Shown: piece after piece, positions 15,198-43,409 of the stretch
Layout of the letters: the number at the start of each line of letters is the position of its first letter
Position numbering within the stretch: position 1 is the first letter of the stretch
Source of the DNA: Bifidobacteriaceae bacterium
GTDB lineage: Bacteria; Actinomycetota; Actinomycetes; Actinomycetales; WQXJ01
Length of the DNA: 64,000 bases
Assembly: GCA_031281585.1 (NCBI GenBank)
Contig: JAITFE010000035.1
Location: 7,183 to 71,182 of the forward strand
Direction: 5' to 3'
The notes under the pieces: model-generated
The model's input: only the letters and a program-made list of their open reading frames with translations
Databases searched by the model: none
Told to the model about the DNA's origin: nothing
Translations under genes and position numbers: made by a program

Positions 15198-15260
15198 CAG
15201 CGGGATCTGCGGTGCCAGCGCATCATCACAGCCCCAAGATCAGAGCGGAGCACCGGCCCC

Positions 15261-18794: not shown

Positions 18795-18895
18795 GCCACA
18801 ATCATCGGCTCCTGTAGGTAGTTCCGGGCGGTCAGCCCTCAGGCCTGAAAGGAGAGCACCCCAATCCGAACCGACGGCCCTCCCCGTCTCCCAAG

Positions 18896-18916
18896 GGCCG
18901 GGCGGCCGGTTTTTTG
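18896..18916 (+). terminator. Possible intrinsic terminator after the NTPase gene
   Basis: A short GC stem, CCGG-gcgg-CCGG, extendable by G-U pairs, is followed by TTTTTT. It lies about 100 nt after the stop at 18794. Confidence 0.4.
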
Positions 18917-19473
18917 CGCATGCGCTCCATGAGATTGACTTTGACCTTCTGCCGCTCTATGGCACCACACTCAAGGCCGCGCTTCGGAAGCTCCCTCCTG
19001 CGAAACCGGCCCTGACCCCCGTGCCGATCAAGCCCATAGGGCTGACGCCCGCCCCAATAGACCCTTGGGACAGCGGTACCCGCCCGGCAAGTCCTCGCGC
19101 AGAACCGCGCGTGGAGTCCGAGCGCATTCGCATCACGTCGTCATATCTCATCAACAGTTCCGGCGCGACCCAATCTCCCCAAAGCCACGAGTTCGTCGCA
19201 GTACCACCGGTCGCGACACCGTTCGCTGACACGTCCTGCCTGATCGTGAGCGGCCACATAACCTGGATGGCCGCCACCTTTTCGCGGAAGCGGCCCAAGC
19301 AGCCTGTTGCCAAGTGGAGTCAATCTCTCCGGGCAACGCCCAATACTCTCAGGGCCATCCACAGGCATCCGTGCAGGCGGAATCGCGATAGCGCGGTGAA
19401 AAGGGGATTGTGCTATCGACTCGGCGAATCAACGGTCCCAACCAACCAAACAGGCGCCCGAGACATCACAGTG

Positions 19474-19546
19474 CGCGCCTGAAGGGATTCGAACCCCCAA
19501 CCTTCTGATCCGTAGTCAGATGCTCTATCCGTTGAGCTACAGGCGC
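19474..19546 (-). tRNA. tRNA-Arg (anticodon ACG)
   Basis: The reverse complement GCGCCTGTAGCTCAACGGATAGAGCATCTGACTACGGATCAGAAGGTTGGGGGTTCGAATCCCTTCAGGCGCG folds as a cloverleaf. The acceptor is GCGCCTG/CAGGCGC, the anticodon stem TCTGA/TCAGA, the loop CTACGGA and the T-loop TTCGAAT. CCA is not encoded. Confidence 0.92.
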
Positions 19547-19735: not shown

Positions 19736-20752
19736 TCAAAGGTCGGTCGGGTCGATCGGGAAGGCGTCCGCGTCCAGGACCTCGCCGCCCACCGTGTGGT
19801 GGATGACGCGGGCCAGGGAAGCCAGCAGGTTCGCCATCTGGGACCGGGTGCGGCAGTGGTCGGCGGGCGGGAACTCCATCAACAAGTGCTTTGGTTCGTC
19901 CGGGATCCAGCGGACGGTGTAGGCGACGGCGCCCTCGGCGGCCCAGGCGACCCCCCGCAGCGCCAGCGGCGGCGGGTCAACGCCCGCGATCTCGATCACC
20001 AGGCCGCCAGCCGGGCCGAGGTCCGCCGCGAGGGCGTACCGGTCCAGGCTGGGCGGCTCCGCCAACGCGGCCTGGTCGCGTCGGTCGGCGCGTTCGTGCA
20101 ATTCGGCGCGGCGGGAAGCGGACAATTCGCCCGCCCCCCCGGCCGTAGAGGGTTCAGACCAGTCGTCGTAGGAGTCGCCGGATTCGGCGGGAGGCGCCAC
20201 GGGCGCGAAGTCGTGCCAGTTGATCGCCAGGTCGAACAACGGAACAACCGAGCGGGCGGTGGCCAAGGCGGCATCGGGCTCCAGCCAGAGCGGCGAGAAG
20301 ACCGTCAAATCGAGGGCGCCGTCCGGCACGGGCGCCACCATCAGACCGGAGTCGTGGAAGCGGACCACGCCGCCCAGTCGGCGGGCGACGGCGACCAGGA
20401 ACTCGACCACCCGCCGCTCCTCGCGCACGGGGAGCCCGCCGGGGAAGGCGCGGGAGATGCCCGTGGGGTCAAGCGAGCCGGGGAAGGGCCGGTCGCCGCG
20501 CTCTGTCAGGGTTGTGGCCATCCAGGCCTGGTTGAGGCCCCGAGGCAGGCCCAGCGACGGCGCCAGGCCGGCGCCAACCGTGTACGGGCCGAACAGCGAC
20601 GAATACCTCGACAAGGTGATTTCCCCCATCGCCTGTTCCACCGCCCGCCAGCGGGTCGCGGCCAAGATGGCGATCTCGCTGGCGTTGATGTCCGGCGCCA
20701 AGACCAGCAGGTGGTGGGTCTGGGCGAGGGCGCTGGTCAGGTTCTGGGGCAT
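19736..20752 (-). CDS. Hypothetical protein (no recognisable motif)
   Basis: A 338-aa ORF with coding-like composition, located 8 nt downstream of dcd on the same strand. I recognise no family. Confidence 0.55.
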   Translation of the reverse strand: MPQNLTSALAQTHHLLVLAPDINASEIAILAATRWRAVEQAMGEITLSRYSSLFGPYTVGAGLAPSLGLPRGLNQAWMATTLTERGDRPFPGSLDPTGISRAFPGGLPVREERRVVEFLVAVARRLGGVVRFHDSGLMVAPVPDGALDLTVFSPLWLEPDAALATARSVVPLFDLAINWHDFAPVAPPAESGDSYDDWSEPSTAGGAGELSASRRAELHERADRRDQAALAEPPSLDRYALAADLGPAGGLVIEIAGVDPPPLALRGVAWAAEGAVAYTVRWIPDEPKHLLMEFPPADHCRTRSQMANLLASLARVIHHTVGGEVLDADAFPIDPTDL

Positions 20753-20759
20753 GGTCGGC

Positions 20760-21335
20760 TCAGATGGCGGTCCGGTGGAAGTTCAAATGCGAACGGGACG
20801 GTGTTGGCCCCCGCTGCCCCTGGTAGCGCGATCCGGTCGCGCCCGAACCGTAGGGGTGCAGCGCCGGGCTGGACAATTCGAAAAAGCACATTTGCCCAAT
20901 CTTCATGCCCGGCCAGAGCTTTATCGGCAGGGTCGACACGTTCGACAACTCCAAAGTGACATGTCCCTGGAAGCCGGGGTCGATGAACCCGGCGGTCGAA
21001 TGCGTCAGCAAACCGAGACGCCCCAGCGAGCTTTTCCCCTCCAGCCGCGCGGCGACCCGGTCCGCCAAACGCACCTGTTCGTAGGTCGAGCCGAGCACGA
21101 ATTCGCCGGGATGCAAGATGAACGGCTCGTTGGGGGGCACGTCGAATGAGCGCGTCAGTTCGGGTTGCTCCTCCGCCGGGTCGATCACGGCGCAGCGGTG
21201 ATTGTCGAACAGGAGGAAGTACCGGTCGAGGCGCACATCGATGGAGCTCGGCTGGATCATCGCCGCGTCGAACGGATCCAGGCTGATTTGCCCGGATTCG
21301 ATTTGGGCCGCGATGTCGCGGTCGGAAAGCAGCAC
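20760..21335 (-). CDS. dcd: dCTP deaminase
   Basis: (M)LLSDRDI...PSSIDVRLD...GFIDPGF.G..TLE pattern over 191 aa. The start is GTG. Confidence 0.93.
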
Positions 21336-21697
21336 CCCCCAATCCTAACGGGCCGGACCAGCCTGTCGGGTGAGGGGTCCGCCGCCGCGCCCGATGCCGT
21401 CCGCCCGCCCCCCAGCCTCATCCCCGCCGCGCTGGGCGTGCGGGGGCGACCAGGCCACCCGGTCCGGGACGCGCCGCGAATTGAGCGGCCGGCCGCTTGG
21501 CGAAATAGTGAAATAACGCCACATCGATTTATCGAAATATCCGCATATCGCAATTGGGGCGGAATTAGGCTAGCCAAACCTCTGCTTATGAAAATGGCGT
21601 CATCCGCAGGCCGCGCTTGCATTGCGGGAGAAATCGTTGTATCACTTAATCAAACGCCAATATCAAAGCCAACAAGCAATTGGAAAAGGAGCGAACC

Positions 21698-22000
21698 ATG
21701 ATGACGCTTGATGAACTGTCGAAGGTTTCGGAATGCTCGGTCGCGGGCTGCGCCTACAACGAGGCGGACGCCTGCCACGCTGGCGCGGTCACCATAGCTG
21801 GCCCGCAGGGCGAGGCGGGCTGCGCCACCTTCATCCCGCTGACCATTAAGGGCGGCTTCGGCGACGCGGTCGCCGCGGTGGGCGCCTGCCAGCACTTCGA
21901 GTGCACCTACAACAGCGAACTCGAATGCGGCGCCCCGGCCATCCAGGTCGGCCTGCGCGGCGCGGCCAGCGCCGACTGCCTGACCTACGCGGCCGCCTGA
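21698..22000 (+). CDS. DUF1540 Cys-rich small protein
   Basis: Two repeats of C-x2-C...C/H motifs are present (CSVAGCAYN..ACHAG; CQHFECTYN..ECGAP). The ATG at 21698 follows AAGGAG. Confidence 0.75.
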   Translation: MMTLDELSKVSECSVAGCAYNEADACHAGAVTIAGPQGEAGCATFIPLTIKGGFGDAVAAVGACQHFECTYNSELECGAPAIQVGLRGAASADCLTYAAA

Positions 22001-22010
22001 CGAACGGAAA

Positions 22011-22064
22011 AGAAATGGGGACGGTGCCTATTTCGCTCGCGAAATAGGCACCGTCCCCATTTCT
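22011..22064. terminator. REP-like palindrome copy 2, probable bidirectional terminator
   Basis: AGAAATGGGGACGGTGCCTATTTCGC / GCGAAATAGGCACCGTCCCCATTTCT is a near-perfect 25-26 bp inverted repeat. It sits between convergent stops at 22000 and 22066. Confidence 0.6.
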
Positions 22065-22065
22065 G

Positions 22066-23739
<1,674 letters not shown>

Positions 23740-23965
23740 TGCGGGGTTGCCTCCTTAGAAAGCAAAAGATGTGTGTGTTCGTCAAACCGTTGTTGAGCGC
23801 CGCCGCCAAAGTGACCAAGAACCGTTCGGGGGTGCTCCGGTGAACCCAGATGCACGGCATCGGACAAAGTGCGTAGGTGCCTTGAAGGCCCGTGCGTAAC
23901 CCCTTGATGGTAACAAGACGGGTTGCGCACGGGCCTTGTCCCGAAGGACCGCTGCGGCGTTCGGG

Positions 23966-25255
<1,290 letters not shown>

Positions 25256-25371
25256 GTGGTCTGCCTCTCCATTGAAGGTGTTTGCGCGGCTCCGAGCCTT
25301 TCTGCGGTGCCGCTTTTATTTGACCTTAAGATATTTCCCGGCTTGGCGCCAGCTCACCTTGGTGAAAAATG

Positions 25372-25398
25372 GCGGAAATTTCCAGCTCGCGGAAATTT
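25372..25398. promoter_or_regulatory. Candidate operator in the icl/regulator divergent region
   Basis: GCGGAAATTT occurs twice 17 nt apart (25372 and 25389). The first copy forms the 10-bp palindrome GGAAATTTCC (25374-25383). Confidence 0.3.
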
Positions 25399-25418
25399 GA
25401 GCGTAGTACCATTGGGGC

Positions 25419-26954
25419 ATGCGTGATGCCGTCGCCAAGGCCGCCGTTTCCCCGTCCGCTGCGCCGGGCTCGGGCGGCCAGCCGGTCCCCATCCAACCCC
25501 CGCCCAAGGCGCTGCGCATGCCCAGGGACGGGATCGACCCCTTGGTGATTGGGCGGCGGATCAGATTCTTCCGGCTCCAAAAGGGGCTCAAACTGGAGGA
25601 ACTGGCGGCGGTGGCGGGGCGGGCGGCATCGGGCATATCGGCGATCGAAAACGGGCTGCGGAGCCCCACGCTGGCGCAAATCGGGGCGATCGCGGCCGCG
25701 TTGGGGGTGGCCCCACGGGCCCTGTTCGACCCGAGCCCGCCCACCGAAAGGGACGCCCTCGAAATCGAATGGGAGCGGGTGCAGCGGGACCCGGCCTACG
25801 CGGCGCGCGGGCTGCCCAGGGTGAAGGTGACCCGGACGACCTCGCCGGAGGTGCTGGAGGCGCTGGTCGGATTGTCCCGCGAGCTTTACCGCGTGCGGGA
25901 GGAAAGGGTGGCCACGCCGGAGGAGGCGCGGCGCGCGAACGCCGCCTTGCGCTTGGAGATGCGGGAACAGGACGACTACTTCCCGGAGCTCGAACGGGCC
26001 GCCGCCCGGCTGCTGGACCTGGCCGGGCATGAGCCGGGCGAGCCGATGAACCAGGCCGACCTGGCCACTTTGACCGGCAAGCTGGGGTTCGAACTGCGGT
26101 TCGTGGACGATCTGCCGCAGACCACGCGGTCCGTGCTGGACACCAAGCGCCACCGGCTCTACCTGCCCCGGCAAGCGGAGGCGGTCACCGGCGACCACCG
26201 GTCTACGGTGCTGCAGGCGCTCGCCTCGCATGTGCTGGGGCACGGTGAACCGGAGGACTACATGGCGTTCCTGCGCCAGCGCGTGGAGGCGAACTACCTG
26301 GCGGGGGCGGTCTTGATGCCGGAAAGCGCGGCGGTGCTGGCGCTGGGGAGCGCCAAGGCGCGCCGTGCGCTGGGAATCGAGGAGTTCCGGGACGCGTTCA
26401 CCGTCTCCTATGAGATGGCCGCCCACCGGTTCGTCAACCTGTCGACCCGGCACCTGGGGATCCGGGTGCACTTCGCCAAGGTCCACTCCTCCGGGGTGAT
26501 CCACAAGTCCTATGAGAACGACGGGTCGCTGTTCCCGACCGACCCCCTAGGGGCCATCGAAGGCCAGTTCATGTGCCGCTACTGGGCGGGCAGGACCGTG
26601 TTCGAGGCGTCCCGGCCGCGAGATCGTTACTGCCAATACACCGACACCCCGCGCGGGACGTTCTGGGCCACCGCCCACTTGAAGCAAACGCGGGACGGGA
26701 TCTTCTCGGTCTCAGTTGGGTGCCGCCTTGAGGACGCCAAATGGTTCGCGGGCGCGGACACGCGCGTCCGCATGCGCTCCGACTGCCCCGACCCGTCCTG
26801 CTGCGCCACGCCCCCCGCTGACCTGGCCGAAGAGTGGGAAGGCTGGGCCTGGCCGGCGGCGCGCCCGCACTCCTCGGTGCTGGCGGCCATGCCCACCGGG
26901 GCGTTCCCGGGCGTGGACCTGACGGACGTGTACGAGTTCCTAGAACGCCAATGA
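25419..26954 (+). CDS. XRE-family HTH regulator with C-terminal ImmA/IrrE-like plus ScfR-type domain (RamB-like)
   Basis: The HTH is IGRRIRFFRLQKGLKLEELAAVAGRAASGISAIENGLRSPTLAQI. The long C-terminal domain and divergent position from icl match RamB-type regulators. An alternative ATG lies at 25518. Confidence 0.8.
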   Translation: MRDAVAKAAVSPSAAPGSGGQPVPIQPPPKALRMPRDGIDPLVIGRRIRFFRLQKGLKLEELAAVAGRAASGISAIENGLRSPTLAQIGAIAAALGVAPRALFDPSPPTERDALEIEWERVQRDPAYAARGLPRVKVTRTTSPEVLEALVGLSRELYRVREERVATPEEARRANAALRLEMREQDDYFPELERAAARLLDLAGHEPGEPMNQADLATLTGKLGFELRFVDDLPQTTRSVLDTKRHRLYLPRQAEAVTGDHRSTVLQALASHVLGHGEPEDYMAFLRQRVEANYLAGAVLMPESAAVLALGSAKARRALGIEEFRDAFTVSYEMAAHRFVNLSTRHLGIRVHFAKVHSSGVIHKSYENDGSLFPTDPLGAIEGQFMCRYWAGRTVFEASRPRDRYCQYTDTPRGTFWATAHLKQTRDGIFSVSVGCRLEDAKWFAGADTRVRMRSDCPDPSCCATPPADLAEEWEGWAWPAARPHSSVLAAMPTGAFPGVDLTDVYEFLERQ

Positions 26955-27086
26955 CGCACGGGGCCGGCGGGCCGAGACGGGACCCTCCCGCCTTTCACCA
27001 GGCGCCGTCCCTATCTGGCGCAGGCCACATCATCTGCCCACATGGGCGCCGTTTCCAACAAGGCCAGCGGCGAGTTTGACCCAAGA

Positions 27087-27440
27087 CACGATCCTGATCC
27101 GGTGGTGGATCACGAAGAGCTCGGAGGCTGTATTTGGGGCTTGAAGACCGGCCGTTGAGGCGCCAAGTGCAACTGAAATCACGATCGTGATCCGGTGGTG
27201 GATCACGAAGGGCTCGAAGGTTGCATTTGGGGCTTGGAGACGGGCCGTTGGGGGGCCAAGTGCAACTGAAATCACGATCGTGATCCGGTGGTGGATCACG
27301 AAGGGCTCGGGGGTTGCATTTGGGGCCTGAAGCGCGCCCGTTGAGGGGCCAAGTGCAACTCCAATCACGATCCTGATCCGCAGGTGGATCACGAAGAGCT
27401 CGGAGGTTGCATTTGGGGCCTGGACCGGGCCCGGACGGGG
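27087..27440. repeat. 93-bp tandem repeat, about 3.8 copies, internally structured
   Basis: Unit starts are at 27087, 27180, 27273 and 27366, an exact 93-nt period. Each unit has a 14-nt palindrome (ATCACGATCGTGAT), hairpin GTGATCC-ggtggt-GGATCAC and hairpin GTTGCATTTGG...CCAAGTGCAAC with a variable loop. There are 3 GATC sites per unit. Confidence 0.9.
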
Positions 27441-27470
27441 TGGATGGCGGGTCGGCGGCTTGCCGCCCGC

Positions 27471-28400
27471 CTACGCGGCTAGCGCGTGGTACGCGGGGAT
27501 GATCGTCTCCACCAGGGCCTCGACCGCCGCGAGCGAAGCCTGGTCTGACTGGCCGGGGATGATCGACAGGTCAACTATGCCCGCGCGTTCGTAGGCGGCG
27601 AAGAGTTCCGCGAGCTCTTGGGGCGATCCGACCGCCTCATAACCGCCGTAGGGGCCGTCAACCACGCCGGTCGGCCCGGAGCCAGAACCCGCAGAACCAG
27701 CAGAACCAACAGAACCCGCCAGCCGCAGCGGCATTCTCAACGCCAGCCCCTTGCCGCCCCGTGCGTACCAATCGGCCGCCGCCGCCTCGATCTGGTCGAC
27801 CGGCTTCAACTGGAGTTGCACCGGCCAGCCCCGGCGGAGCGCCTGCCTGGTGGTGGCGGGTCCTCCCGCCAGCCACAACTCCGGCGCCACCCCGTTGTGG
27901 GGAACGGGCGAAAGCCGGCCCCAGTCCGGATAGGTCGCCACCTCGGAGGAGTGCGCCCTTCCGGCGAAGGCGGCCTCAAGCGCGTCCAGCGAGGCGGCGA
28001 GCCGCCGCCCCCGCCGGTTGTAGTCCAGCCCCAGGAAAGCGAATTCGCGTTCCCACATGCCGGGCGTCAACGCCAAGACGAAGTTGCCCTCCGTCAGCTG
28101 GTCCAACGTGGCCGCCTGTTTGGCCAGCCAAGTCACGTCCCGCAGGGGCAGCACAGAGGCGCACACACCGACCCGCGCGCCGGGATGGCGCCCGGCCAGC
28201 AAAGCCAGCCAAGTGATCGGCTCCATCCCGCCGGACCAGGGCTTGAACTCCTCGACGTAAAGCAGGCCCTCGCCCAGCCAGAAGCTGTCGATCCCGCCCG
28301 CGAACGCCGCGTCCGCGACGGCCAGCATCCCGGCGCGGGTGGAGGCGAAAGGCGAGATGCCGATCCGCATCCGCCCTCCGCCCGCCACCGGCGGGCTCAT
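27471..28400 (-). CDS. Luciferase-like (LLM class) flavin/F420-dependent oxidoreductase
   Basis: MRIGISPF...GIDSFWLGEG...LPLRDVTWLAKQAATLDQLT pattern. An ATGA overlap with the upstream gene lies at 28397-28400. It is a paralog of 40179..41060. Confidence 0.78.
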   Translation of the reverse strand: MSPPVAGGGRMRIGISPFASTRAGMLAVADAAFAGGIDSFWLGEGLLYVEEFKPWSGGMEPITWLALLAGRHPGARVGVCASVLPLRDVTWLAKQAATLDQLTEGNFVLALTPGMWEREFAFLGLDYNRRGRRLAASLDALEAAFAGRAHSSEVATYPDWGRLSPVPHNGVAPELWLAGGPATTRQALRRGWPVQLQLKPVDQIEAAAADWYARGGKGLALRMPLRLAGSVGSAGSAGSGSGPTGVVDGPYGGYEAVGSPQELAELFAAYERAGIVDLSIIPGQSDQASLAAVEALVETIIPAYHALAA

Positions 28401-28987
28401 CGCGGCACCGCGTGAAGGGCGTGCCGCTCCGGGATCGCGGAGCGAAGCCCCAGGCCGGTGGCCACGCGGTTGGTGTAGGCGTAATAGGCGACCAGGTTGT
28501 TCAGGGCGACAATGTCCGCATCGCCCAGTCCAACAGCGCGCAGGCCCTGGATGTCGGCCTCGGTGACGGCGCCGGGCGTGGCGGCCAGCAATCCGGTGTA
28601 CCGGATGACGGCGTCCAGGCGGGAATCCCCGGTTTGCGGATCCAACGGCGTGGCGGCCGCGCGCGAAACCAAGTCCGAGTCGGCGTCAAGCTGCTCCAAG
28701 GCGAGCCGGGCGCCGGAGGCGCAATGCGGGGTGGCGTTGACCACCGACGTCACGTACACCACCAGCTTCTGCTCCAACGCGGTCAAACCGCCCAGCGAGC
28801 CTTCCACCACCTTGTACAGCCGCAGCCGTTCCAGCACCAGTTCCGGGTGCAGCGAGCCAAGCTGGGTGTATTCGGTCGGTTCGCCCAGGCGCGCCGCCTG
28901 CCAGTCGTAAGCCTCTTTCAGCGTGCCCGTGGCGTCCTCGGGGGCGATGGTCTTGACCCATGCCACCGGCCGAATTGCCGCGCTCAC
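28397..28987 (-). CDS. Carboxymuconolactone decarboxylase (AhpD-like) family protein
   Basis: The 196-aa protein has the peroxidase-related CMD pattern (LEQKLVVYVTSVVNATPHCASGA ... DADIVALNNLVAYYAYTNRV). Confidence 0.72.
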   Translation of the reverse strand: MSAAIRPVAWVKTIAPEDATGTLKEAYDWQAARLGEPTEYTQLGSLHPELVLERLRLYKVVEGSLGGLTALEQKLVVYVTSVVNATPHCASGARLALEQLDADSDLVSRAAATPLDPQTGDSRLDAVIRYTGLLAATPGAVTEADIQGLRAVGLGDADIVALNNLVAYYAYTNRVATGLGLRSAIPERHALHAVPR

Positions 28988-30135
28988 AGCTTCAACTCCG
29001 GGTCGATGAACTCGTTGGTGGCGAAGTCGCCCACCTTCAGGTCCTGGCTGACCTCAATGCCGTCTGCGGCCACCGCGTCGCGGTAGGTGTCGATGAACTC
29101 CGCGAACGTGTCCAGCGGCAGCGACCCGTAGGCGCCGTCCGGCCCGTTGGCGATCAACCTCTCTTCGACCAGGGTCTTGGCCGCCCAGTCGAGCAGCCCG
29201 TCGCTGAGTTCCCAGCCCGAGCCGGTGAACCCGGCGGCCGTCTCCTCGAGCGCCTTGTTGCCGGCGGACGGGTCCTTGGCGTAGTCGATCCCGGCTTGCT
29301 GGAAGATCGGCACCAGCCCCGCGAGGCATTCGCGGTTGTCCTCCAACCGGTCCGAGCGGATCGACAGCTGGTGGTACAAAGCCGGGTATTCCTCGCCCAC
29401 GTTGATCCACTTCAGCGGCTTGTTCCACTCCGGCAGGTCGTTCTGATATTGGTAGATCTCGGAAGTCAGATAGCCCTGTTGGACCACGTTGCCCTCCTCG
29501 ATGACGAACCGCGCCGGGTCGCCGCTGTACGAGTTGTCGATTTGCGCCTGATCCAACAGGCCCTCCGCCAACAGCACCTTCAGGTACGGCGCCGATTCGA
29601 CGGTCAGGACGGTCACCCCGGCCTCTTTGATGTCCGTCAAGTTGTCGAAGTCCCAGTCTTGGTTGCCCCAATAGAGGACCAGCGGCACGCGCTGCAACGG
29701 CGTGAACACGGCGACGGTTGGGAACTCTTTGGCGTTCTCAATGGACTGTTCGGTCGAGGTCACCCCCAGCAGCACCGAATCGTCCTTGTAGAGGAGGGAG
29801 GTGGTGGATTGGAACCCGACTGCCGCCCCGCCGGAGTGGACGGCCAGGTTCACCCCCGTTTCGCCCAACGGGCCGGAGTAGGTGAAGGTGTTCGCGTCCA
29901 CGTCGCCACCGGGCCCGATCAGGTGGAACAGGAAGCCGTAGTCGGCTTGCGGCCACCAGTCGATTTGCACGTCGACCGTGTCGGGGCACACGCCCTTCAA
30001 GTCGGTCGCGTAAACGCCCGCGGAGGGCCCATCGGCCGAAGCGCCGACTGCGGGCGGTGGTTCCTTCTCCGCCGAGCAAGCGGTCAGCGTCAACGCCGCG
30101 ATCAGGAGGGGCGCGGCCAGAGCGGCCTTGGACAT
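28984..30135 (-). CDS. ABC transporter substrate-binding lipoprotein (NMT1/THI5-like, NitT/TauT family)
   Basis: It has a signal peptide with the lipobox LTLTAC. It sits in an operon with a matching permease and ATPase. Confidence 0.78.
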   Translation of the reverse strand: MSKAALAAPLLIAALTLTACSAEKEPPPAVGASADGPSAGVYATDLKGVCPDTVDVQIDWWPQADYGFLFHLIGPGGDVDANTFTYSGPLGETGVNLAVHSGGAAVGFQSTTSLLYKDDSVLLGVTSTEQSIENAKEFPTVAVFTPLQRVPLVLYWGNQDWDFDNLTDIKEAGVTVLTVESAPYLKVLLAEGLLDQAQIDNSYSGDPARFVIEEGNVVQQGYLTSEIYQYQNDLPEWNKPLKWINVGEEYPALYHQLSIRSDRLEDNRECLAGLVPIFQQAGIDYAKDPSAGNKALEETAAGFTGSGWELSDGLLDWAAKTLVEERLIANGPDGAYGSLPLDTFAEFIDTYRDAVAADGIEVSQDLKVGDFATNEFIDPELKL

Positions 30136-30157
30136 GATGTTCTCCTTTGCCTATTGG

Positions 30158-31696
30158 TTAGGTCGTTACTTGGGTTGGGGTAGGGGTTTTGCAAGCTAGG
30201 TGCCCGATGCCGTCCGCCCCCGCCCACGGCACCGGCTCACGTTGGGTTTCGGTACGGGCGACGAGGGAACCGCCCTTGAACACCAGCCGTTCGGGCGGCG
30301 CGAAGGCGACCAGTTCTTGGGGCGAGCGGGCGCGGGCCACCAGCAGGTCGGCGGCGGCGCCGGGCGCGGGGCCGGCCGGGCCCAGGCCCAGCGTGGACCG
30401 GGCGGCCTGGGTGACGGCGTGCAAAGCCTCGGCGATGGTCAAGTGCGCGCCCGCGACCAGCAGGGCGGCTGTTTCCAGGGGGTCGGGGCGGCCCACCAGG
30501 TTGAAGGCGTCCAGGAGGTTGTCAGCCCCGCCGGCCACGTTGACTCCGGCGTCCAGCAGGTCCCGCACGGCGGTGATGCCGCGCTGAACGGGCGAGGCGG
30601 CCTCCCGTCCTTGCAGGTAGAGGTTGGTCAACGGCAATGTCACCACGTTGACGCGGGCCTGCGCGAGCTTCGCAGCGGTCGCGGCGATCCGTTCGGGCGG
30701 TTGCAACGCCAACGAGCAGACGTGGTCCACGGTCACCGGTACGCCCAATGCGCCGGCCCGTTCGGCCACGTCCTCCAACAGGAAGTGCGCCGGGTCCAGC
30801 GTCTCGTCCAGGTGCAGGTCCAGCGGGACGCCGCCTTGCGCGGCCGTGTCCAGGATTATGGCGAGCGCCTCGCCGGGCGCCGGGTCGAAGTTCGGCGCCC
30901 CGCCGATCCCGTCCGCCCCGGCTTCGATGGCGCGCTCGATCAAACGGCGCTGGGACAGTCCGTCCCGGCCGGTGACCGGCAGCCCGAAGGAGGGGAAGAC
31001 TTGCAGGTCAACCCAGGGGGCCACGGCCTTCTTGACGGCCAGAAGGCGCTCCAACGGGTCAAGCCCGGTGGCCGCCCCGGTGTCCACATGGGTCCTGAAG
31101 GCGGTCACGCCGGCGGCCAGGCCGTCCGCCAGCACGCGCAGGGCGCGTTCTTCGAGGTCGTGGTAGCGCTCGCGGGGGCCCACGGCCATCCATTTGTCGA
31201 TGGCGCCGGGCAGGTCGCCGCGCGGGTTGGCAACCCTGTCTGCCGTCAGCGCCTTGTCAAGGTGGGTGTGGGGCTCCGCCAAGGCGGCCAGGACCACATA
31301 GCCGGGCAGTTCAAGCACGGTGTGGCGCCCGGCCTTCGCCGCGCCCTGGGGCGCGACCCGCTCCACCACCCCCCCGGTGATCACCACGTCGCTGGGGGCG
31401 TCCAAGAGTTGGCCCCGGACGGGCCGGACCCCGCGCAGGATCCAGTCGCGCTCGGCGTGGTCAACGCTCGCGGCAGGCGGGGTTCGAGCCGCATGCGGCC
31501 CACCTTGGGCTGGGGCTGGTGCTGCGGCGGGCGGGGTTCGAGCCGCATGCGGCCCGCTCTGGGCTGGGGCGGCGCCGCCGGGGTGAGCCGACTGCGGCTG
31601 TCCGGAGCCGACCGGCCCGCTGGCGGCGCGCGCCGGTACCGGCGACGGCTGCTCGCCGGCCGGCCCGGACGGCTTTGGGTCCCCGGGCCCGCTCAT
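30158..31696 (-). CDS. Amidohydrolase, cytosine-deaminase-like
   Basis: The EPHTHLDKA metal-binding motif is present, with further His/Asp blocks (DLHLDE, VDHVCSL). An ATGA overlap with the permease stop supports the start at 31696. About 75 aa of low-complexity N-terminus contains a 54-nt duplication. Confidence 0.8.
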   Translation of the reverse strand: MSGPGDPKPSGPAGEQPSPVPARAASGPVGSGQPQSAHPGGAAPAQSGPHAARTPPAAAPAPAQGGPHAARTPPAASVDHAERDWILRGVRPVRGQLLDAPSDVVITGGVVERVAPQGAAKAGRHTVLELPGYVVLAALAEPHTHLDKALTADRVANPRGDLPGAIDKWMAVGPRERYHDLEERALRVLADGLAAGVTAFRTHVDTGAATGLDPLERLLAVKKAVAPWVDLQVFPSFGLPVTGRDGLSQRRLIERAIEAGADGIGGAPNFDPAPGEALAIILDTAAQGGVPLDLHLDETLDPAHFLLEDVAERAGALGVPVTVDHVCSLALQPPERIAATAAKLAQARVNVVTLPLTNLYLQGREAASPVQRGITAVRDLLDAGVNVAGGADNLLDAFNLVGRPDPLETAALLVAGAHLTIAEALHAVTQAARSTLGLGPAGPAPGAAADLLVARARSPQELVAFAPPERLVFKGGSLVARTETQREPVPWAGADGIGHLACKTPTPTQVTT

Positions 31697-32598
31697 GCTT
31701 CGCGCCCCGCGCCGGCCCGCCGGCCGGTCTCATGCCACTTGCCCACCACCGCCTGCGACAGCAGGCCGAACGCCCAGAACACGGCGATCCCGAAGCTTGA
31801 GGCCAAGATCACCCCGGCGAACAACTGCGCGGAACGCAGGTGCTGGGTGTAGGCGTCCAACAGGCGCCCGATCCCGGCCTGGCCGTGCCGGAAGAAGTAG
31901 TCACCGACTATGGCGCCGGTGACGGACAGCCCGGCGGAGATCCGCCAGCCCGCCAGCACTGACGGCAGGGCGCCCGGGATCAGCAGCTTGAGGACCTTGT
32001 CGCGCCAGGAGGCGCCGTAAAGGCGGAACAGGTCGCGGTGCGCCTCGGTGGCGGACTGCAAGCCGAACAGCGTGTTGGTGATGATGGGGAAGAGCGCGAT
32101 CATCACGCAGACCAGGACCCGTGAGCCGAAACCGTAGCCGAACCAGAAGCTGATCAGCGGAACCAAAGCCAGGATCGGGATGGTTTGGAGGATCACGGCC
32201 CACGGGTAGATGGACCGTTCCAGCCAGATCGCCTGGCTCATCGCCAGCGCGACGAGCGACCCGAGCACTATCGCTATGGCCAGCCCGACCACCGCGACCG
32301 ATGCCGTCTGCGACAAGCCCGCCAGCAACTCGCCCCGGTTGCGGTCATCCAGGAACCCGATCCGGACCACGTCGCTGGGCGGAGGCAGGATGAACCGGCG
32401 GGCCGGGCTCATGATTTGCGTGGAGAAGTACTCCCAGAAGGCCAGCAAGACGACGGTGGTCACCACCGGCAGAGCCAGGTTCTTGGCCCGTTTGCGCAAG
32501 CGCGCGGTCCAGGGCGCGCGCCCCGCCGGCGCGGGGCCGCCGTTCTTTGGGTTCGCGTCCGGTTTGCGCCGGAGCGCGGGGGCGGCCGGGGCGCTCAT
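31693..32598 (-). CDS. ABC transporter permease (NitT/TauT-type)
   Basis: The protein has six hydrophobic segments. It shares 4-nt overlaps with both flanking genes of the ABC operon. I did not verify a specific permease signature motif. Confidence 0.85.
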   Translation of the reverse strand: MSAPAAPALRRKPDANPKNGGPAPAGRAPWTARLRKRAKNLALPVVTTVVLLAFWEYFSTQIMSPARRFILPPPSDVVRIGFLDDRNRGELLAGLSQTASVAVVGLAIAIVLGSLVALAMSQAIWLERSIYPWAVILQTIPILALVPLISFWFGYGFGSRVLVCVMIALFPIITNTLFGLQSATEAHRDLFRLYGASWRDKVLKLLIPGALPSVLAGWRISAGLSVTGAIVGDYFFRHGQAGIGRLLDAYTQHLRSAQLFAGVILASSFGIAVFWAFGLLSQAVVGKWHETGRRAGAGREA

Positions 32599-33389
32599 GA
32601 CGCGCCCGCCGTCGTGGCCTTGTGACGTAGCGCGTGGGTGACCTCTGCGACCGCCCCGGCGTAGGCCGAACTGAGCCGGAACTCCGGGTCGCGAGGTTGC
32701 GCCGCCGCCACCGGTATCTCCGCCACGATCCGCCCGGGGCGAGCCGACATCACCAGCACGCGGCTGGACAGGTACACGGCTTCCGCCACGGAGTGGGTCA
32801 CGAACACGCCCGCGAAGCGTTGGCGGGCCGCCAACGCGCTCAGTTCGTCGCCCAGGTTCTGACGGGTGATCTCATCCAGCGCGGCGAACGGCTCGTCGAA
32901 CAAGAAAACGTCCGGTTCGCCGGTCAGCGCGCGGGCCAGCGACACGCGCATGCGCATGCCACCGGACAGCGTGGCCGGGAGAGCCTGTTCAAAGCCGCCC
33001 AGGCCGGTCAACTCGATGGCCCAGGCGACTTTGGCGGCCCGCTCGGCCCGGGGCGCGTGGGCCAACTCGAGCCCCAAGCCGATGTTCGCCGCCACCGACC
33101 GCCACGGCAGCAAGGTCGGGTCCTGGAAGACGTAGCCGATCGAGTTGGTCGCGCTCACAATCCGGCCCGCGGTGGGACGGTCCAGTTTGGCGGCCAACCG
33201 CAGCAGGGTCGACTTCCCGCAGCCGGACGGCCCCACAATGGCGACGAACTCGCCCGGCTTGATCGTCAGCGAGGTGGGCGCCAAGGCCTCCACCCCGCCC
33301 GGGAACACCCGGCCGATCTCCTGAAAGTCCAGCACGCCGGCTTGGACGGGGGCGTCGGCGCGCCCTTCGAGTTGGGAAACCGCGGTCAT
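32595..33389 (-). CDS. ABC transporter ATP-binding protein
   Basis: Walker A is GPSGCGKST, the signature is LSGGMRMRV and Walker B is VFLFDEP. The ATG at 33389 overlaps the upstream stop. The ORF extension to 33947 is Arg/Pro-rich and rejected. Confidence 0.9.
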   Translation of the reverse strand: MTAVSQLEGRADAPVQAGVLDFQEIGRVFPGGVEALAPTSLTIKPGEFVAIVGPSGCGKSTLLRLAAKLDRPTAGRIVSATNSIGYVFQDPTLLPWRSVAANIGLGLELAHAPRAERAAKVAWAIELTGLGGFEQALPATLSGGMRMRVSLARALTGEPDVFLFDEPFAALDEITRQNLGDELSALAARQRFAGVFVTHSVAEAVYLSSRVLVMSARPGRIVAEIPVAAAQPRDPEFRLSSAYAGAVAEVTHALRHKATTAGAS

Positions 33390-34408
33390 GACGCACCACC
33401 CTGAATCGGCTTGTAGCGGGAACGGAGGAACAGCAGGTCGCCTGCCTTGCGCACGCTGATCAACTGTGAGACCGGGGCGGCCTCGGGCTGGAACGCCACG
33501 CCTTCCACCACCGTGGGCCGGTGGGCGTTCGGGGCGGCGCCGATCACCAGGGGCGACAGGGTGAAGAACTCCTCGTGGATCGCGCCGGCGGCCAAGAACC
33601 GGGCGTAGACCGTTGGCCCGCCCTCGCAAATGATCCGGCGGGCGCCGTACTTGGCGTGCAGCCGGGCGACCAGTTCGTTCGGATCCACCCAGTCGGCATC
33701 GAAAACCTCCACCGCGATGTCGGTGCGGCCCGCCTGAGCCGAGGCGTCGCGGGCCGGGCCGGCCGGTGGCGTGGCCGGAGACTGGGCGCCCCGGCGGGTT
33801 GGCCGCGCGGGCGGATCGCTGAGGCCGGGCTCGGGGACCGAGTCGGGCGCCGGTCCGGCGGGGGACCCGGAACTGGCGAACTCGATGGCGGCGCGGGCGC
33901 CCCGGCGGGTGGTGGCGATCACGGCCTTGGAGCCGGGGCGGCGCCACACGTCCGCGTCGGGGCGCACCCGGCCGCTGGCGGACAAGATGACCGGGAGCAT
34001 TTCGGGGCGCAGGCCCTCTTGGCGGCGGAGTTCGGCCAGCGGCTCCGCCAGGGCCGGCTCGGTCGAACCGACCGTGAAACCGACCTCGGGCGCGATCAGC
34101 AGGGAGGCGTCGCCCAGCACGCAGGCGTCCGCGCGGCCGCGCAGCAGCGCCATCAGCCAGCGGTCGTTGTCAATCCCGACCGGCAGTTGGTCCGGCAGGT
34201 AGGCGCCGGGCTGGTTGAAACTGACTCGGCCGTCGCGTGAGACGATGAAATTCGAATAGACGTAGGGCTCATCGGCCGGCAGGGTCCACGGACCGTAGAC
34301 GTCGGCGAACGGCTCCGGGAGCGCGGCGCCGGTCGCGGCGTCTTCCGCCTCGAACAGTTGCTCGAAGGGGAACCCAGGGGCCTTTGGGCCTGCGGCCTGT
34401 GTTGTCAT
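33386..34408 (-). CDS. RibD C-terminal domain / dihydrofolate-reductase-like reductase
   Basis: SNFIVSRDGRVSF and RIICEGGPTVYARFLAAGAIHEEFFTLSPLVIG motifs are present. About 50 aa of Pro/Ala-rich insertion lies mid-protein. Confidence 0.7.
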   Translation of the reverse strand: MTTQAAGPKAPGFPFEQLFEAEDAATGAALPEPFADVYGPWTLPADEPYVYSNFIVSRDGRVSFNQPGAYLPDQLPVGIDNDRWLMALLRGRADACVLGDASLLIAPEVGFTVGSTEPALAEPLAELRRQEGLRPEMLPVILSASGRVRPDADVWRRPGSKAVIATTRRGARAAIEFASSGSPAGPAPDSVPEPGLSDPPARPTRRGAQSPATPPAGPARDASAQAGRTDIAVEVFDADWVDPNELVARLHAKYGARRIICEGGPTVYARFLAAGAIHEEFFTLSPLVIGAAPNAHRPTVVEGVAFQPEAAPVSQLISVRKAGDLLFLRSRYKPIQGGAS

Positions 34409-34655
34409 GATCCGTATCTCAGGTGGGGCCAGCGGTCCGCCGGCGGTCGAATGTGGGAATGCGAGGGGGAGACTTCAGCCAGGTCAGCGCATTCGCCCGG
34501 ACATTCGGGCAGGACAGCGTGCGGCGGACAGGGGACGCCGCTGGATCGCTGTGCTCTGGATCACAGGAGGAGTGTGGTGGCCCCGGCGTTCGGCGTCAAC
34601 GCGAGGCTCTGAACAGCCAGTCCGGTCGGGCTGAAAACGCGGGTCAGGGCCGTCT

Positions 34656-35501
34656 TTACAATTCTCCGCATTCTGGCCGCTCTGCCGTGGCCACGGCCGG
34701 GAACGCGAACAGCAACCCCCGGCCGTCCGGCCGCTCCACCAATTCGCACGGCAAACCATAGACCCGCTCCACCAAGGCGCTGGTCAGGACCCGGTCGGCG
34801 GGGCCGTCCGCCAGCACCCGCCCGCCCGCCAGCGCCACCACGCGGTCCGCCACCGCCGCCGCAAAGGCCAAGTCGTGGACCGCCGCCATCACGGCCAGCC
34901 CGTCGGCCGCCAGGGCGCGCAGCCGCGCCGCCAACTCGGCGCGGGCTTTGACGTCGAGGTGCGCGTCCGGCTCGTCCAACAGCAACACCGCCGGGGTTTG
35001 GGCCAGCGCCCGCGCCAGCCGCACCCGTTGGCGTTCGCCGTCGGAGAGCGTCGCGAAGCCCCTTTCGGCCAGTTCGGCCACGCCCGTCCGGGCCATTGCG
35101 CCAAGGACCACCTCGTCATCCCGCCGGCTGGGCTGGGCGAGGGCCGGCCGGTGCGGGTAGCGCCCAAGCTCCACAACCGCGCGCACGCGCAAAGCGGGAT
35201 CCGGCTCCTCTTCGGCGGCCACCAGCGCCAGGCGCTGGGCCCGCTGGCGCGGGCTGAGGGCCAAGAGGTCGTCGCCGTCCAAGAGGACCCGGCCGTTGGC
35301 TTTGACCAGGCCGCACACGGCGCGCAACAGCGTCGACTTGCCCGCCCCGTTGGCGCCGATCACGGCCGTGACCTCGCCCGCCGCCGCGTGGATGGCGGTC
35401 GCGTGAAGCAAATGCCGCCCGTCCACGCGGACCGACAGGTCCCGTGCCGCGAGGCCTGGCCGCGTTGCCGGCTGGCGGTGCTGGGGGGTGGGGGACGTCA
35501 T
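34656..35501 (-). CDS. Iron-siderophore/cobalamin-type ABC ATP-binding protein (FecE-like)
   Basis: Walker A is GANGAGKST, the signature is LSDGERQRV and Walker B is LLLLDEP. The ATG at 35501 overlaps the permease stop. Confidence 0.88.
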   Translation of the reverse strand: MTSPTPQHRQPATRPGLAARDLSVRVDGRHLLHATAIHAAAGEVTAVIGANGAGKSTLLRAVCGLVKANGRVLLDGDDLLALSPRQRAQRLALVAAEEEPDPALRVRAVVELGRYPHRPALAQPSRRDDEVVLGAMARTGVAELAERGFATLSDGERQRVRLARALAQTPAVLLLDEPDAHLDVKARAELAARLRALAADGLAVMAAVHDLAFAAAVADRVVALAGGRVLADGPADRVLTSALVERVYGLPCELVERPDGRGLLFAFPAVATAERPECGEL

Positions 35502-39398: not shown

Positions 39399-39402
39399 GG
39401 CG

Positions 39403-41060: not shown

Positions 41061-41103
41061 CCTCGCCAGCCTGATTCCGGCCCTGCGGCCCGCGGCGCGA
41101 ATG

Positions 41104-43392: not shown

Positions 43393-43409
43393 GGGTTCCC
43401 GCCGGGCGG

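Follow-up and report, generated by a model that had tools for sequence, protein, structure and literature searches.

A tandem array of 93-nt units rich in inverted repeats between convergent genes of an uncultured actinobacterium

The 3' ends of two convergent genes in an uncultured actinobacterium of the Bifidobacteriaceae are separated by an intergenic gap that holds direct repeats of a 93-nt unit, and the unit itself is built around palindromes. The question that this locus raises is whether so regular an arrangement serves a dedicated function, for example as a structured RNA or as a platform for a DNA-binding protein, or whether it is a minisatellite that grew from a segment of DNA already bearing hairpins. 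The analysis covered a stretch of 64,000 nucleotides, referred to here as the window, and all positions are those of the window unless stated otherwise.

Anatomy of the array

The array comprises about 3.6 gap-free head-to-tail copies of the 93-nt unit at 27087 to 27425, with no indels between copies. It is the strongest repeat of the 64-kb window by a wide margin according to Tandem Repeats Finder, which placed it at 27087 to 27422 with a period of 93, 3.6 copies, 90% matches, 0% indels, and a score of 523. An nhmmer profile of the unit gave exactly four matches in the window, all in register, and the 20-nt hairpin motif likewise matched 4 times, against 0.00 matches expected by chance. Alignment confirmed the unit starts at 27087, 27180, 27273, and 27366 that a sequence-only reading of this DNA had proposed, with a 93-nt period and a partial fourth copy. 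All four units have the same orientation, as direct repeats, and they abut with no spacers between them. Copy 2 is identical to copy 1 at 84 of 93 positions and to copy 3 at 82 of 93 (unit alignment), and copy 4 aligns with the unit up to position ~58 to 60, after which identity falls to the random level.

The array touches neither flanking coding sequence. It lies in a gap that had correctly been given as 516 nt, between the stop of a regulator gene at 26954 and the stop codon, at 27471, of a convergent gene for an oxidoreductase of the luciferase-like monooxygenase (LLM) class. The start of the LLM gene is placed at 28400 by NCBI and at 28370 by JGI. Both flanking genes have a hairpin of their own beside the stop codon, as judged by folding. 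A separate family of long hairpins occupies other convergent gaps of the window. The features of the region are listed below.

23966 to 25255, minus strand: aceA, divergent from the RamB-like regulator gene
25419 to 26954, plus strand: gene for an XRE-HTH regulator of the short-chain fatty acyl-CoA regulator/RamB type, upstream neighbor of the array
26955 to 42274, no strand: ~15.3-kb block that relatives L013 and L030 lack between the regulator gene and a cation-efflux gene
27087 to 27425, no strand: tandem array, 3.6 copies of the 93-nt unit (Tandem Repeats Finder, unit alignment, nhmmer)
27087 to 27179, no strand: copy 1, the edge copy and most degraded full copy, both stems weakened (alignment, folding)
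27180 to 27272, no strand: copy 2, both stems intact (folding)
27273 to 27365, no strand: copy 3, both stems intact (folding)
27366 to 27425, no strand: copy 4, partial, without the 3' arm of stem 2 and with an abrupt end of similarity (alignment, nhmmer)
27178 to 27191, no strand: 14-nt palindrome ATCACGATCGTGAT at the unit junction, perfect; also 27271 to 27284 (perfect) and 27364 to 27377 (one mismatch)
27185 to 27208, no strand: inverted repeat 1, TCGTGATCC-GGTGGT-GGATCACGA, 9 bp with a 6-nt loop; also 27278 to 27301
27092 to 27115 (copy 1) and 27371 to 27394 (copy 4), no strand: versions of inverted repeat 1 with a C.C mismatch
27220 to 27266, no strand: inverted repeat 2, GTTGCATTTGG-25 nt-CCAAGTGCAAC, with an 11-bp stem; also 27313 to 27359
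27127 to 27173, no strand: weakened version of inverted repeat 2 in copy 1
27406 to 27416, no strand: orphan 5' arm of inverted repeat 2 in copy 4
27446 to 27471, minus strand: GC-rich hairpin resembling a terminator, immediately 3' of the LLM stop codon, outside the array and 20 nt from its truncated end (fold, sequence)
27471 to 28400, minus strand: gene for the LLM-class flavin-dependent oxidoreductase, downstream and convergent

Each unit carries three ATCACGA/TCGTGAT half-sites, which make up the 14-bp palindrome and a 24-bp inverted repeat, plus the second inverted repeat. Only 0.1 matches to a palindrome of the ATCACGATCGTGAT type are expected in shuffles of the window, and the palindrome is perfect at 27178 and 27271, the two places, in copies 2 and 3, where it had been described as such. 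The hairpin that the sequence-only reading gave as 7 bp is present and is in fact 9 bp long in copies 2 and 3. Copies 1 and 4, two of the four, have the central half-site altered from TCGTGAT to TCCTGAT. The 11-bp stem that had been assigned to every unit holds for copies 2 and 3, with one T.G position that can form a G.U wobble on the plus strand only, and it does not hold for copy 1, in which it is weakened, or for copy 4, which lacks the 3' arm. It was an overstatement that most differences between copies lie in the ~25-nt loop, which contains 8 of the 16 positions varying among the full copies and represents 27% of the unit (Fisher P = 0.08). This loop segment is still ~70% conserved between copies, and with units that abut directly, the array is not a CRISPR, as had been argued. 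Stem positions do differ between copies less often than the remaining positions of the unit (3 of 40 versus 15 of 53, P = 0.016, from only ~18 variable sites in nonindependent copies), as would be expected if the stems were under constraint.

GATC occurs 12 times in the 339-nt array, at ~5.6 times the window density (6.1 per kb), a cluster that could be imagined as a Dam-type methylation-sensitive switch or as a SeqA-like or restriction-related group of sites. The earlier count of three per unit and ~12 in ~350 bp was accurate. However, these are 3 independent sites copied 4 times, and they cluster because the three repeat arms that form the inverted-repeat half-sites each contain a GATC. The excess per unit is modest (P of about 0.02), the motif is overrepresented 2.1-fold across the whole window, which speaks against restriction-type avoidance, and the open reading frames (ORFs) scanned in the window included no methyltransferase or restriction gene. 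A function residing in the GATC sites is scarcely credible on these grounds.

Coding potential and folding

The array is noncoding. Its GC3 is 0.63 to 0.68 in all frames, versus 0.85 to 0.93 in genes. A coding repeat was considered, given that 93 nt equals 31 codons and that a minus-strand frame is open for 120 codons, and was rejected on a GC3 of 0.66, the lack of a Pfam match, and the lack of a homolog among 5.8 billion proteins.

The inverted repeats of the unit are far better than chance would provide, as seen from the perfect 14-nt palindrome and from fold z-scores of about -4.3 to -4.5 for single units. The individual values were -4.25 on the plus strand and -3.8 on the minus strand for copy 2, and -4.49 and -3.0, respectively, for copy 3. 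Copy 1 folds no better than its shuffles (-0.9 on the plus strand and -0.1 on the minus strand). The whole array gave z-scores of -5.5 on the plus strand and -5.0 on the minus strand, and fold energies per unit were -40 and -48 kcal/mol on the plus strand versus -27 and -35 kcal/mol on the minus strand.

A structured noncoding RNA read from the plus strand, either as an extension of the regulator 3' untranslated region or as an independent small RNA with stem-loops acting as a scaffold or sponge, would be consistent with the whole-array z-score of that strand, with its greater stability per unit, and with the T.G position of stem 2 that pairs only there. However, the minus strand also scores well, as any inverted-repeat DNA would, and the additional stability of the plus strand is partly due to G-richness (the GC skew of the array is +0.24). 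The covariation check that the sequence-only reading had suggested revealed no compensatory change in 20 proposed pairs; 17 were invariant, 2 were broken with no compensation, and 1 had changed to G.U, the four paralogous copies offering little statistical power. The suggested comparison with Rfam 15 yielded no family match, the best scores being 15 to 19 bits against gathering scores of 34 to 85, with E values above 0.1. A gathering-score search of the entire window found a tRNA only; there is no tRNA signal within the array, and a tRNA-derived unit was rejected. Neither strand of the array contains a TANNNT -10 element, and no promoter or terminator consensus was found in it. Moreover, a terminator-like structure separates the regulator stop from the array, and there are no homologs on which conservation might be tested. 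We give a plus-strand RNA a very slim chance.

Searches for further copies and the break in synteny

No second copy of the unit, not even a degenerate one, was found in the 64-kb window by pattern search or by nhmmer --max, and neither palindromic motif recurs elsewhere in the 64 kb. The unit was absent from ~90 kb of sequence from close relatives and, apart from contigs of the same organism, from 239 kb of fetched loci. A homologous array in relatives was rejected, the 7 fetched loci having no unit and the local alignments falling within the shuffle range; an imperfect repeat with ~93-nt spacing in L013 was judged to be a coincidence. Collection scans with a 27-nt hairpin pattern, which needed an exact match to 20 bases and could miss relatives diverged by more than ~10%, gave chance matches only. 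Representative genomes (185,579) and JGI metagenomes yielded 11 matches each, all of them single, ~28 nt long, and from unrelated taxa. A search via proteins of spurious ORFs gave no match. A viral, phage, or plasmid origin was rejected, with no match in viral contigs, phages, or plasmids. The organism carrying the array was itself seen in one run and one sample only. The search at other loci and in relatives that had been proposed earlier therefore found nothing, whether elsewhere in the window, at the loci of relatives, or in the collections, and in everything searchable (64 kb of genome, one sample, and public collections) the unit appears to be unique to this locus.

These searches bear on the idea that the array belongs to a dispersed family with few copies, MIRU-like or REP/BIME-like, which sits at gene 3' ends, stabilizes or terminates transcripts, and has its other members outside the 64-kb window. 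A location between convergent genes, with hairpins that are stable on either strand, agrees with REP/BIME behavior (PMC3184786), the genome uses dispersed hairpin elements in other convergent gaps, and assemblies break at the unit. A MIRU-like density of ~1 locus per 100 kb (as computed for a ~4.4-Mb genome with ~41 loci) would be compatible with a single locus in one 64-kb window. However, the window and the ~90 kb from close relatives together contain zero further copies, the public collections scanned contain none, and the tandem array itself accounts equally well for the assembly breaks. We consider a dispersed family unlikely.

Homology to seven orthologous or related loci of relatives ends at the regulator stop codon or no more than ~15 nt from it (26950 to 26967), and the sequence 3' of the regulator gene differs in each relative. 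Relatives with a regulator that is 85 to 89% identical, the closest of them 89% identical at the protein level, have no array. Unrelated tandem duplications are found right after the regulator stop codon in L029 (12 nt, repeated about 5.5 times) and in L015 (33 nt, repeated 2 times). The lineage is repeat-prone at this point, and the DNA downstream of the RamB-like regulator gene is a hotspot at which relatives have different neighbors and different small repeats.

The presence of a regulator gene immediately upstream, the perfect palindromes at an exact 93-bp phasing, and the greater conservation of stems than of loops invite the view that the array is an iterated binding platform, on which a dimeric protein would occupy the half-sites as in a plasmid centromere, an iteron array, or an array that titrates a regulator. 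RamB-type regulators recognize TTTGCAAA-like sites. Binding of the adjacent RamB-like regulator is not supported, as the stem-2 arms share only TGCAA with TTTGCAAA and the promoter region of the regulator gene carries a different, GGAAATTTCC-type repeat. The motifs of the array occur nowhere else in the 64 kb, that promoter region included, and the array lies between gene 3' ends and not at a promoter. The central half-site is mutated in half of the copies, the relatives with a closely similar regulator do without the array, and the window yielded no par, rep, or mobility genes. A binding platform is distinctly unlikely in light of these observations. The earlier proposal of a structured RNA array or an iterated protein-binding site is thus left unsupported by the Rfam comparison, the covariation analysis (0 of 20 pairs), the search for TANNNT, the search for homologs, and the confinement of the palindromes to one place in 64 kb. 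That proposal had itself named as grounds against it a unit unique to this locus, a lack of transcription, and a lack of covariation, and the first and last of these three are what we found, as far as the data reach.

The array also stands at the extreme left edge of the ~15.3-kb block, and copy 4 is cut off on the side facing the block. The right edge is fixed by a conserved 15-mer upstream of the efflux gene, at 42275 in the window and at 11774 in L013. The block has a GC content of 70 to 74.5% across 30 to 42 kb, and its genes encode LLM oxidoreductases, a carboxymuconolactone decarboxylase-type (CMD), peroxidase-related protein, an amidohydrolase, and ABC/FecCD transport proteins. No mobility genes were found in the block, and its two ends have no repeat in common that is longer than chance. 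Borders of a MITE or att type were rejected, there being no flanking inverted or direct repeats save a 10-nt, 90% match inside two terminator-like stems.

The coincidence of the array with a synteny break might indicate a partial assembly artifact, in which the unit is real and the short-read assembler created its copy number or the connection across the array. Indeed, a Logan assembly of the same run, made independently, reproduced both flanks at every base and broke off within the repeat, at 27191 and 27280. These breaks lie to either side of copy 2 and leave the interior copies to the MAG assembly alone. However, the longest stretch common to neighboring copies is ~55 nt, shorter than typical reads, private variants of copy 2 link it uniquely to its neighbors, and both ends of the block fit one simple insertion between the regulator and efflux genes. 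We judge an artifact to be very improbable.

The same position at the edge of an inserted block would suit a functional, lineage-restricted element at an island junction. Its phased palindromes might be bound by a host or island protein that insulates, silences, or recombines the 15.3-kb block, or the plus strand might yield a multihairpin RNA from the 3' end of the regulator gene. The stems would then be more conserved than the loops because of selection and not by chance. This appears quite improbable. Were binding or transcription of the array to be found, it would offer a compact case of phased palindromes at the border of an island.

Origin of the array and comparison with known repeat classes

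The reading that we favor, with a probability of roughly 0.6, is that of a lineage- and locus-specific intergenic minisatellite, formed when a hairpin-bearing segment was duplicated in tandem at a junction prone to recombination and acting at most as a passive hairpin barrier. The starting point would have been a segment of ~93 bp in the hypervariable DNA that directly follows the RamB-like regulator gene. It would already have carried two inverted repeats, hairpins of a type that is common in this genome at the 3' ends of genes, and replication slippage or unequal recombination would have amplified it head to tail. A later rearrangement that brought in the ~15.3-kb GC-rich metabolic block may have cut the array inside the fourth copy. 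An array made by tandem duplication alone would consist of whole units, so the 3.6 copies suggest a truncation. Interior copies that are alike and an edge copy that has decayed are as expected for arrays homogenized by recombination. The array would have no dedicated sequence-specific function; if read-through from either convergent gene arrives, the stems would be expected to fold and, in the manner of REP/BIME elements, to serve passively as 3' hairpins or as barriers to transcription.

As it stands, the array matters little, being one more private minisatellite in an uncultured actinobacterium, and its palindrome-rich makeup is common among bacterial intergenic repeats. It may be usable as a strain-typing (VNTR) marker for the lineage, and it flags a point where short-read assemblies break. 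The context is the more useful by-product, namely the hotspot downstream of the RamB-like regulator gene and the 15.3-kb metabolic block taken up there with no visible mobility gene.

Among known systems, the sopC centromere of the F plasmid has 12 tandem units of 43 bp, and SopB binds the inverted repeat that each of them contains. The present array resembles it in having tandem units with a palindromic site at fixed phasing in each. Unlike sopC, it has no partition or replication genes nearby, its context is chromosomal and metabolic, and two of its four copies have degraded half-sites. A plasmid centromere or iteron array is not supported by the identity of the neighbors, which are aceA, the RamB-like regulator gene, and genes for LLM oxidoreductases, the CMD protein, and the amidohydrolase. 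The attC sites of integrons have the core sites R''/R', with the consensus RYYYAAC...GTTRRRY. By direct reading, GTGCAAC and GTTGCAT of the array are each one position off that consensus; the stem is continuous, without bulges, only 25 nt lie between the sites, and no integrase was found among the scanned ORFs, so that an attC array (CALIN) was rejected. A CRP/GlxR site, TGTGA-N6-TCACA, was rejected as well, the spacing in the array being GTGA-N12-TCAC by direct reading.

BrickBuilt of Porphyromonas gingivalis is a minisatellite inside a MITE, with leader and tail subunits that have inverted-repeat ends and with 19 copies per genome (PMC4596501). Like BrickBuilt, the array is a spacerless intergenic minisatellite with predicted secondary structure; unlike for BrickBuilt, no terminal inverted repeats, target duplications, or other copies were found.

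The REP/BIME elements of enterobacteria and pseudomonads are extragenic, biased to convergent gene ends, and composed of clustered, stable, imperfect stem-loops (PMC3184786). The array shares with them extragenic imperfect palindromes between convergent genes and a plausible passive role as a 3' hairpin or transcription barrier. However, REPs are 21 to 65 bp long and number hundreds per genome (PMC3184786), whereas the units here are 93 bp long, and no second locus was found in 64 kb, where the REP density of Escherichia coli would predict several. BIME units alternate in orientation, whereas all of the 93-bp units point in the same direction.

MIRUs, described by Supply et al. in 1997 as summarized in PMC3184786, are tandem intergenic units of 40 to 100 bp with GC-rich internal inverted repeats, and in these respects and in its actinobacterial host the array is like them. 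They are dispersed at ~40 to 50 loci per genome, whereas the 93-nt unit is single-locus in everything searched. They lie inside operons, between codirectional genes that are transcribed polycistronically, whereas the array lies between convergent genes. They carry small ORFs overlapping the neighboring stop and start codons, whereas the 93-nt unit has no coding signal. The sequence-only reading had likened the array to MIRU/VNTR-type minisatellites; the general kind (head-to-tail, ~90 bp, and intergenic) is upheld, and the distinctive MIRU features of operon position and coupled small ORFs are not, nor was dispersal seen in the window or in the ~90 kb from relatives.

The closest counterparts are locus-specific VNTR minisatellites, such as the "exact tandem repeat" loci of Mycobacterium tuberculosis and the minisatellite class of small variable segments (PMC2884548). 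A copy number that varies between strains is the practical hallmark of such loci, whereas the present array is known from one sample, and its unit is, unlike typical VNTR minisatellites, unusually rich in inverted repeats. In common with them, it consists of head-to-tail, spacerless units of tens of base pairs with ~90% identity between copies, and it is intergenic, has a sequence private to one locus, and occupies a region that differs between close relatives.

The 93-nt array and its neighborhood

The host is an uncultured actinobacterium, whose flanking proteins carry the NCBI label "MAG: Bifidobacteriaceae bacterium." The window has a GC content of 68%, and its parent contig is 74.5 kb long. 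The features around the array are as follows.

Upstream of the regulator: malate synthase and isocitrate lyase (aceA, minus strand)
25419-26954, plus strand: regulator, 511 aa, XRE-HTH, short-chain fatty acyl-CoA regulator/RamB type, divergent from aceA
27087-27422: array of the 93-nt unit
In each unit: junction palindrome ATCACGATCGTGAT, perfect at 27178 and 27271
In each unit: inverted repeat 1 (hairpin 1), TCGTGATCC-N6-GGATCACGA, 9 bp
In each unit: inverted repeat 2, GTTGCATTTGG-N25-CCAAGTGCAAC, 11 bp with one T.G position
27471-28400, minus strand: LLM-class (luciferase-like monooxygenase) oxidoreductase, downstream of the array and convergent
Beyond the LLM gene: CMD (carboxymuconolactone decarboxylase-type, peroxidase-related) protein, unknown protein, amidohydrolase, transporters

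Tandem Repeats Finder (TRF) gave the array a period of 93, 3.6 copies, 90% matches, no indels, and a score of 523, the highest in the window (second best, 234). The copies are in register when cut at 27087, 27180, 27273, and 27366, which confirms the period, the four starts, and the partial fourth copy claimed in the sequence-only reading. Also borne out were its 516-nt gap between convergent gene ends (stops at 26954 on the plus strand and 27471 on the minus strand), the 14-nt junction palindrome, the 11-bp stem around about 25 nt, and three GATC sites per unit, about 12 in all (12 were counted). The hairpin that it described is present, but the stem is 9 bp instead of 7. Copies 1 and 3 are identical to copy 2 at 84/93 and 82/93 positions, respectively. 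The similarity of copy 4 extends to about unit position 58 to 60, with random identity beyond, and the 93 nt preceding copy 1 showed no relation to the unit. A GC-rich hairpin lies at the LLM gene (27446-27471), with the truncated copy 4 starting 20 nt on, and the regulator and LLM genes each have their own hairpin closer to the stop codon than the array.

The analysis covers 64 kb of a single genome in a single sample, and the interior copy number comes from a metagenome-assembled genome (MAG) assembly. In the Logan assembly, made independently from the same run, two contigs are identical to the window, so the repeat is present in the reads; one contig stops at 27191 and the other begins at 27280. 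We consider a copy-number or assembly artefact very unlikely.

Two further repeats were observed nearby. The divergent promoter region between aceA and the regulator (25370-25402) carries a repeated GGAAATTTCC-type motif (GGCGGAAATTTCCAGCTCGCGGAAATTTGAGCG), a candidate operator with no relation to the array palindromes. Within the LLM gene, a 9-nt repeat, CAGAACCAG, present 3.8 times (27683-27716), encodes a Gly/Ser-rich insertion, AGSVGSAGSAGSGS, which lengthens the LLM protein by about 11 aa relative to its homologs of 288 aa.

Coding, RNA structure, and GATC content

A unit of 93 nt corresponds to a whole number of codons, and on the minus strand the array has a frame that is open for 120 codons. 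Third-position GC, however, was 0.63 to 0.68 in all frames, compared with 0.85 to 0.93 in the neighboring genes, and the open frame had no Pfam match and no homolog among 5.8 billion proteins; together these rule out the array as a gene. A consensus scan of the array found neither promoter nor terminator. The array has one TA dinucleotide and TANNNT on neither strand, and thus lacks a sigma-A type -10 element. Rfam returned noise only on the array (15 to 19 bits versus gathering scores of 34 to 85), hence no family match, and at gathering level a tRNA only in the whole window. Separately, ARAGORN called a 92-nt tRNA-Leu(CAA) at 4660-4751, within a high-GC3 open reading frame (ORF) at 4096-5526 (minus strand); this call is probably a false positive, because the Rfam tRNA model stays below its gathering score there.

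Inverted-repeat DNA of any kind folds well on both strands. Single-unit fold z scores were -4.25 (copy 2) and -4.49 (copy 3) on the plus strand and -3.8 and -3.0 on the minus strand, and the full array gave -5.5 (plus) and -5.0 (minus). The plus strand owes its advantage to a single G.U position and to G-richness (GC skew, +0.24), and copy 1, at the edge, folded no better than shuffles (z scores of -0.9 and -0.1). Over the aligned copies, 17 of the 20 proposed pairs are invariant, 1 changes to G.U, and 2 have lost their pairing with no compensating change: at unit position 8, copies 1 and 4 have C in place of G, and at position 42, copy 1 has C in place of T. Two-sided changes numbered 0/20, so covariation yielded no compensated pair. 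Variable sites occupy 3/40 stem positions versus 15/53 in the rest of the unit (Fisher P = 0.016, for about 18 sites in nonindependent, paralogous copies), and this lower stem variability is the sole hint of constraint. The stems are real inverted repeats, and nothing shows their upkeep as structure. A structured RNA on the plus strand, the better-folding one, is hardly probable.

The palindrome recurs in each unit, as an iterated protein-binding site would, but the palindrome, hairpin, and stem-2 arms occur nowhere in the window outside 27087-27433, and we judge such a site unlikely. With Rfam noise, no compensated pairs, and no motif elsewhere in the window, the functional reading as structured RNA or protein-binding site is unsupported.

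The three GATC sites per unit are the palindrome center and one in each arm of hairpin 1. Their excess per unit over the window density is modest (P ~0.02), and GATC is 2.1-fold overrepresented window-wide, giving no hint of restriction-type pressure. The GATC cluster is a by-product. Among the window ORFs scanned there were no methyltransferase, restriction, mobility, partition, or replication genes, and we give almost no credence to a GATC-methylation switch.

Other copies, related loci, and inserted blocks

A hairpin pattern of 20 fixed bases with a free loop, requiring an exact match at all 20 positions, was scanned against 185,579 species (one genome each) and 241 million JGI metagenome records, both of which leave out the window's own genome. 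Each collection gave 11 single matches, in unrelated taxa, none extending past about 28 to 30 nt. There was no match in viral contigs (two patterns), phage genomes, or plasmids (blastn), and a whole-unit profile (nhmmer --max) matched nothing in the window outside 27087-27433. Seven loci of relatives were fetched, six with a regulator 77 to 89% identical and one with the nearest LLM homolog (67%); the unit is in none of them, and intergenic alignments to the array score within shuffle range. The unit is an orphan across everything searchable, with no further copy in the window, the collections, or the relatives' loci. A low-copy dispersed family with its other members outside the window is a minor possibility.

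A separate dispersed hairpin family has the core GGGGACGGTACC (or GGTGCC), at 766-811, 22017-22058, and 43333-43390 of the window and at 3737-3802 of the relative's locus L015. At two sites it forms near-perfect 25- to 28-bp hairpins, AAA/TTT flanked, right after stops in convergent gaps, an arrangement that resembles a REPIN or a bidirectional terminator; at 43333 and in L015 there are instead two copies in direct tandem. Members of the family also sit at synteny breaks, namely, at the border of the second block described below and at the regulator 3' end in L015.

In all six regulator-bearing loci, nucleotide homology ends at or within about 15 nt of the regulator stop (26950-26967). The gene after the regulator varies: a cation-efflux gene in L013 and L030, SBP_bac_5 in L015, and DUF6924 in L029, with the contigs of L014 and L016 ending within 150 to 380 nt of the stop. 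The DNA behind the stop differs in every relative (including L013, 11600-11770), and three have tandem duplications there unrelated to the array: GGGCCGCGAACT in L029 (2380-2450; 12 nt, about 5.5 times), 33 nt twice in L015, and about 44 nt twice in L016 (about 11660-11740). The differing sequence, the relatives' own small repeats, and the contig ends near the stop point to a general repeat and rearrangement hotspot.

The window is collinear with L013 over 19742-26951, resumes at 42344 (cation-efflux gene), and does so again at 56501, with shared genes 79 to 86% identical in nucleotides. Upstream of the efflux gene, amid otherwise nonalignable intergenic DNA, the window (42275-42289) and L013 (11774-11788) share a conserved 15-mer, CCGATAATGGATCGG, with CCGAT/ATCGG arms; it is a candidate metal-regulator operator. 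These breakpoints and the conserved 15-mer place about 15.3 kb (26955-42274) where L013 has 216 nt. This first block, whose left edge the array marks, has a GC content of 70 to 74.5% across 30 to 42 kb, versus 64 to 68% in the flanks, and encodes four LLM oxidoreductases, a CMD protein, an amidohydrolase, two ABC systems, and a RibD_C protein. It showed neither an integrase nor a transposase, and its two junction zones have no common repeat longer than chance. In L031, a distant relative, the LLM gene is mid-operon, with the next gene 7 nt later; the window operon ends at the LLM gene.

Other variable regions were noted. A second block of about 13.2 kb (43278-56500) encodes an aminotransferase, MoaF, an ABC system, an amidohydrolase, and an AsnC-type regulator; the two blocks flank the cation-efflux gene, are absent from L013 and L030, and showed neither an integrase or transposase nor att-like repeats. 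TRF also picked out (score, 234) a repeat at 37871-38065 with periods of 21, 42, and 84 nt, which bears no relation to the 93-nt unit. It is located upstream of the conserved portion of a Peripla_BP_2 substrate-binding protein gene (minus strand), where it reads as a repetitive 7-aa N-terminal extension. A stretch of lower GC content (about 65%) at 12104-19546 adjoins tRNA-Arg (19473-19546, minus strand) and encodes a pentapeptide-repeat protein, an alpha/beta hydrolase, and a 1,177-aa STAND-like NTPase. The corresponding side of L013 is occupied by an integrase/Toprim/AAA_25 element, and tRNA-Arg may thus be the site of a second variable island.

Origin of the array and comparison with known repeats

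We favor, at a probability of roughly 0.6, a lineage-specific minisatellite, probably without a dedicated function. In this reading, slippage or unequal recombination would have multiplied a stretch of about 93 bp, carrying two inverted repeats, in the hypervariable DNA behind the regulator gene; interior copies would have been kept similar while the edge copy decayed, and the far end would have been cut off where an acquired gene block begins. Tandem duplication gives whole numbers of units, so from 3.6 copies with an abrupt end we infer a cut, best read as made by the event that created the junction.

The architecture of the array is not unusual, because families of stem-loop repeats are frequent in the intergenic DNA of bacteria (PMC2267715). 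The sequence-only reading that the array is not CRISPR was upheld. An attC-like array was rejected, a partition- or replication-linked array has no such genes adjoining, and the array is not a MITE-borne minisatellite of the BrickBuilt type (PMC4596501). Its likeness to MIRU/VNTR-type minisatellites stood in part: it behaves as a minisatellite and shares host phylum and unit size with MIRU, but lacks the dispersal, the position inside operons, and the coupled small ORFs of MIRU (PMC3184786). REP/BIME elements resemble it in location and hairpin content, but not in copy number and alternating orientation. Their 3' hairpins in transcripts impede exonucleases or polymerases (PMC3184786); by analogy, read-through transcripts of the array might at most fold as 3' hairpins with such an effect. 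The array behaves like the locus-specific bacterial minisatellites (PMC2884548).
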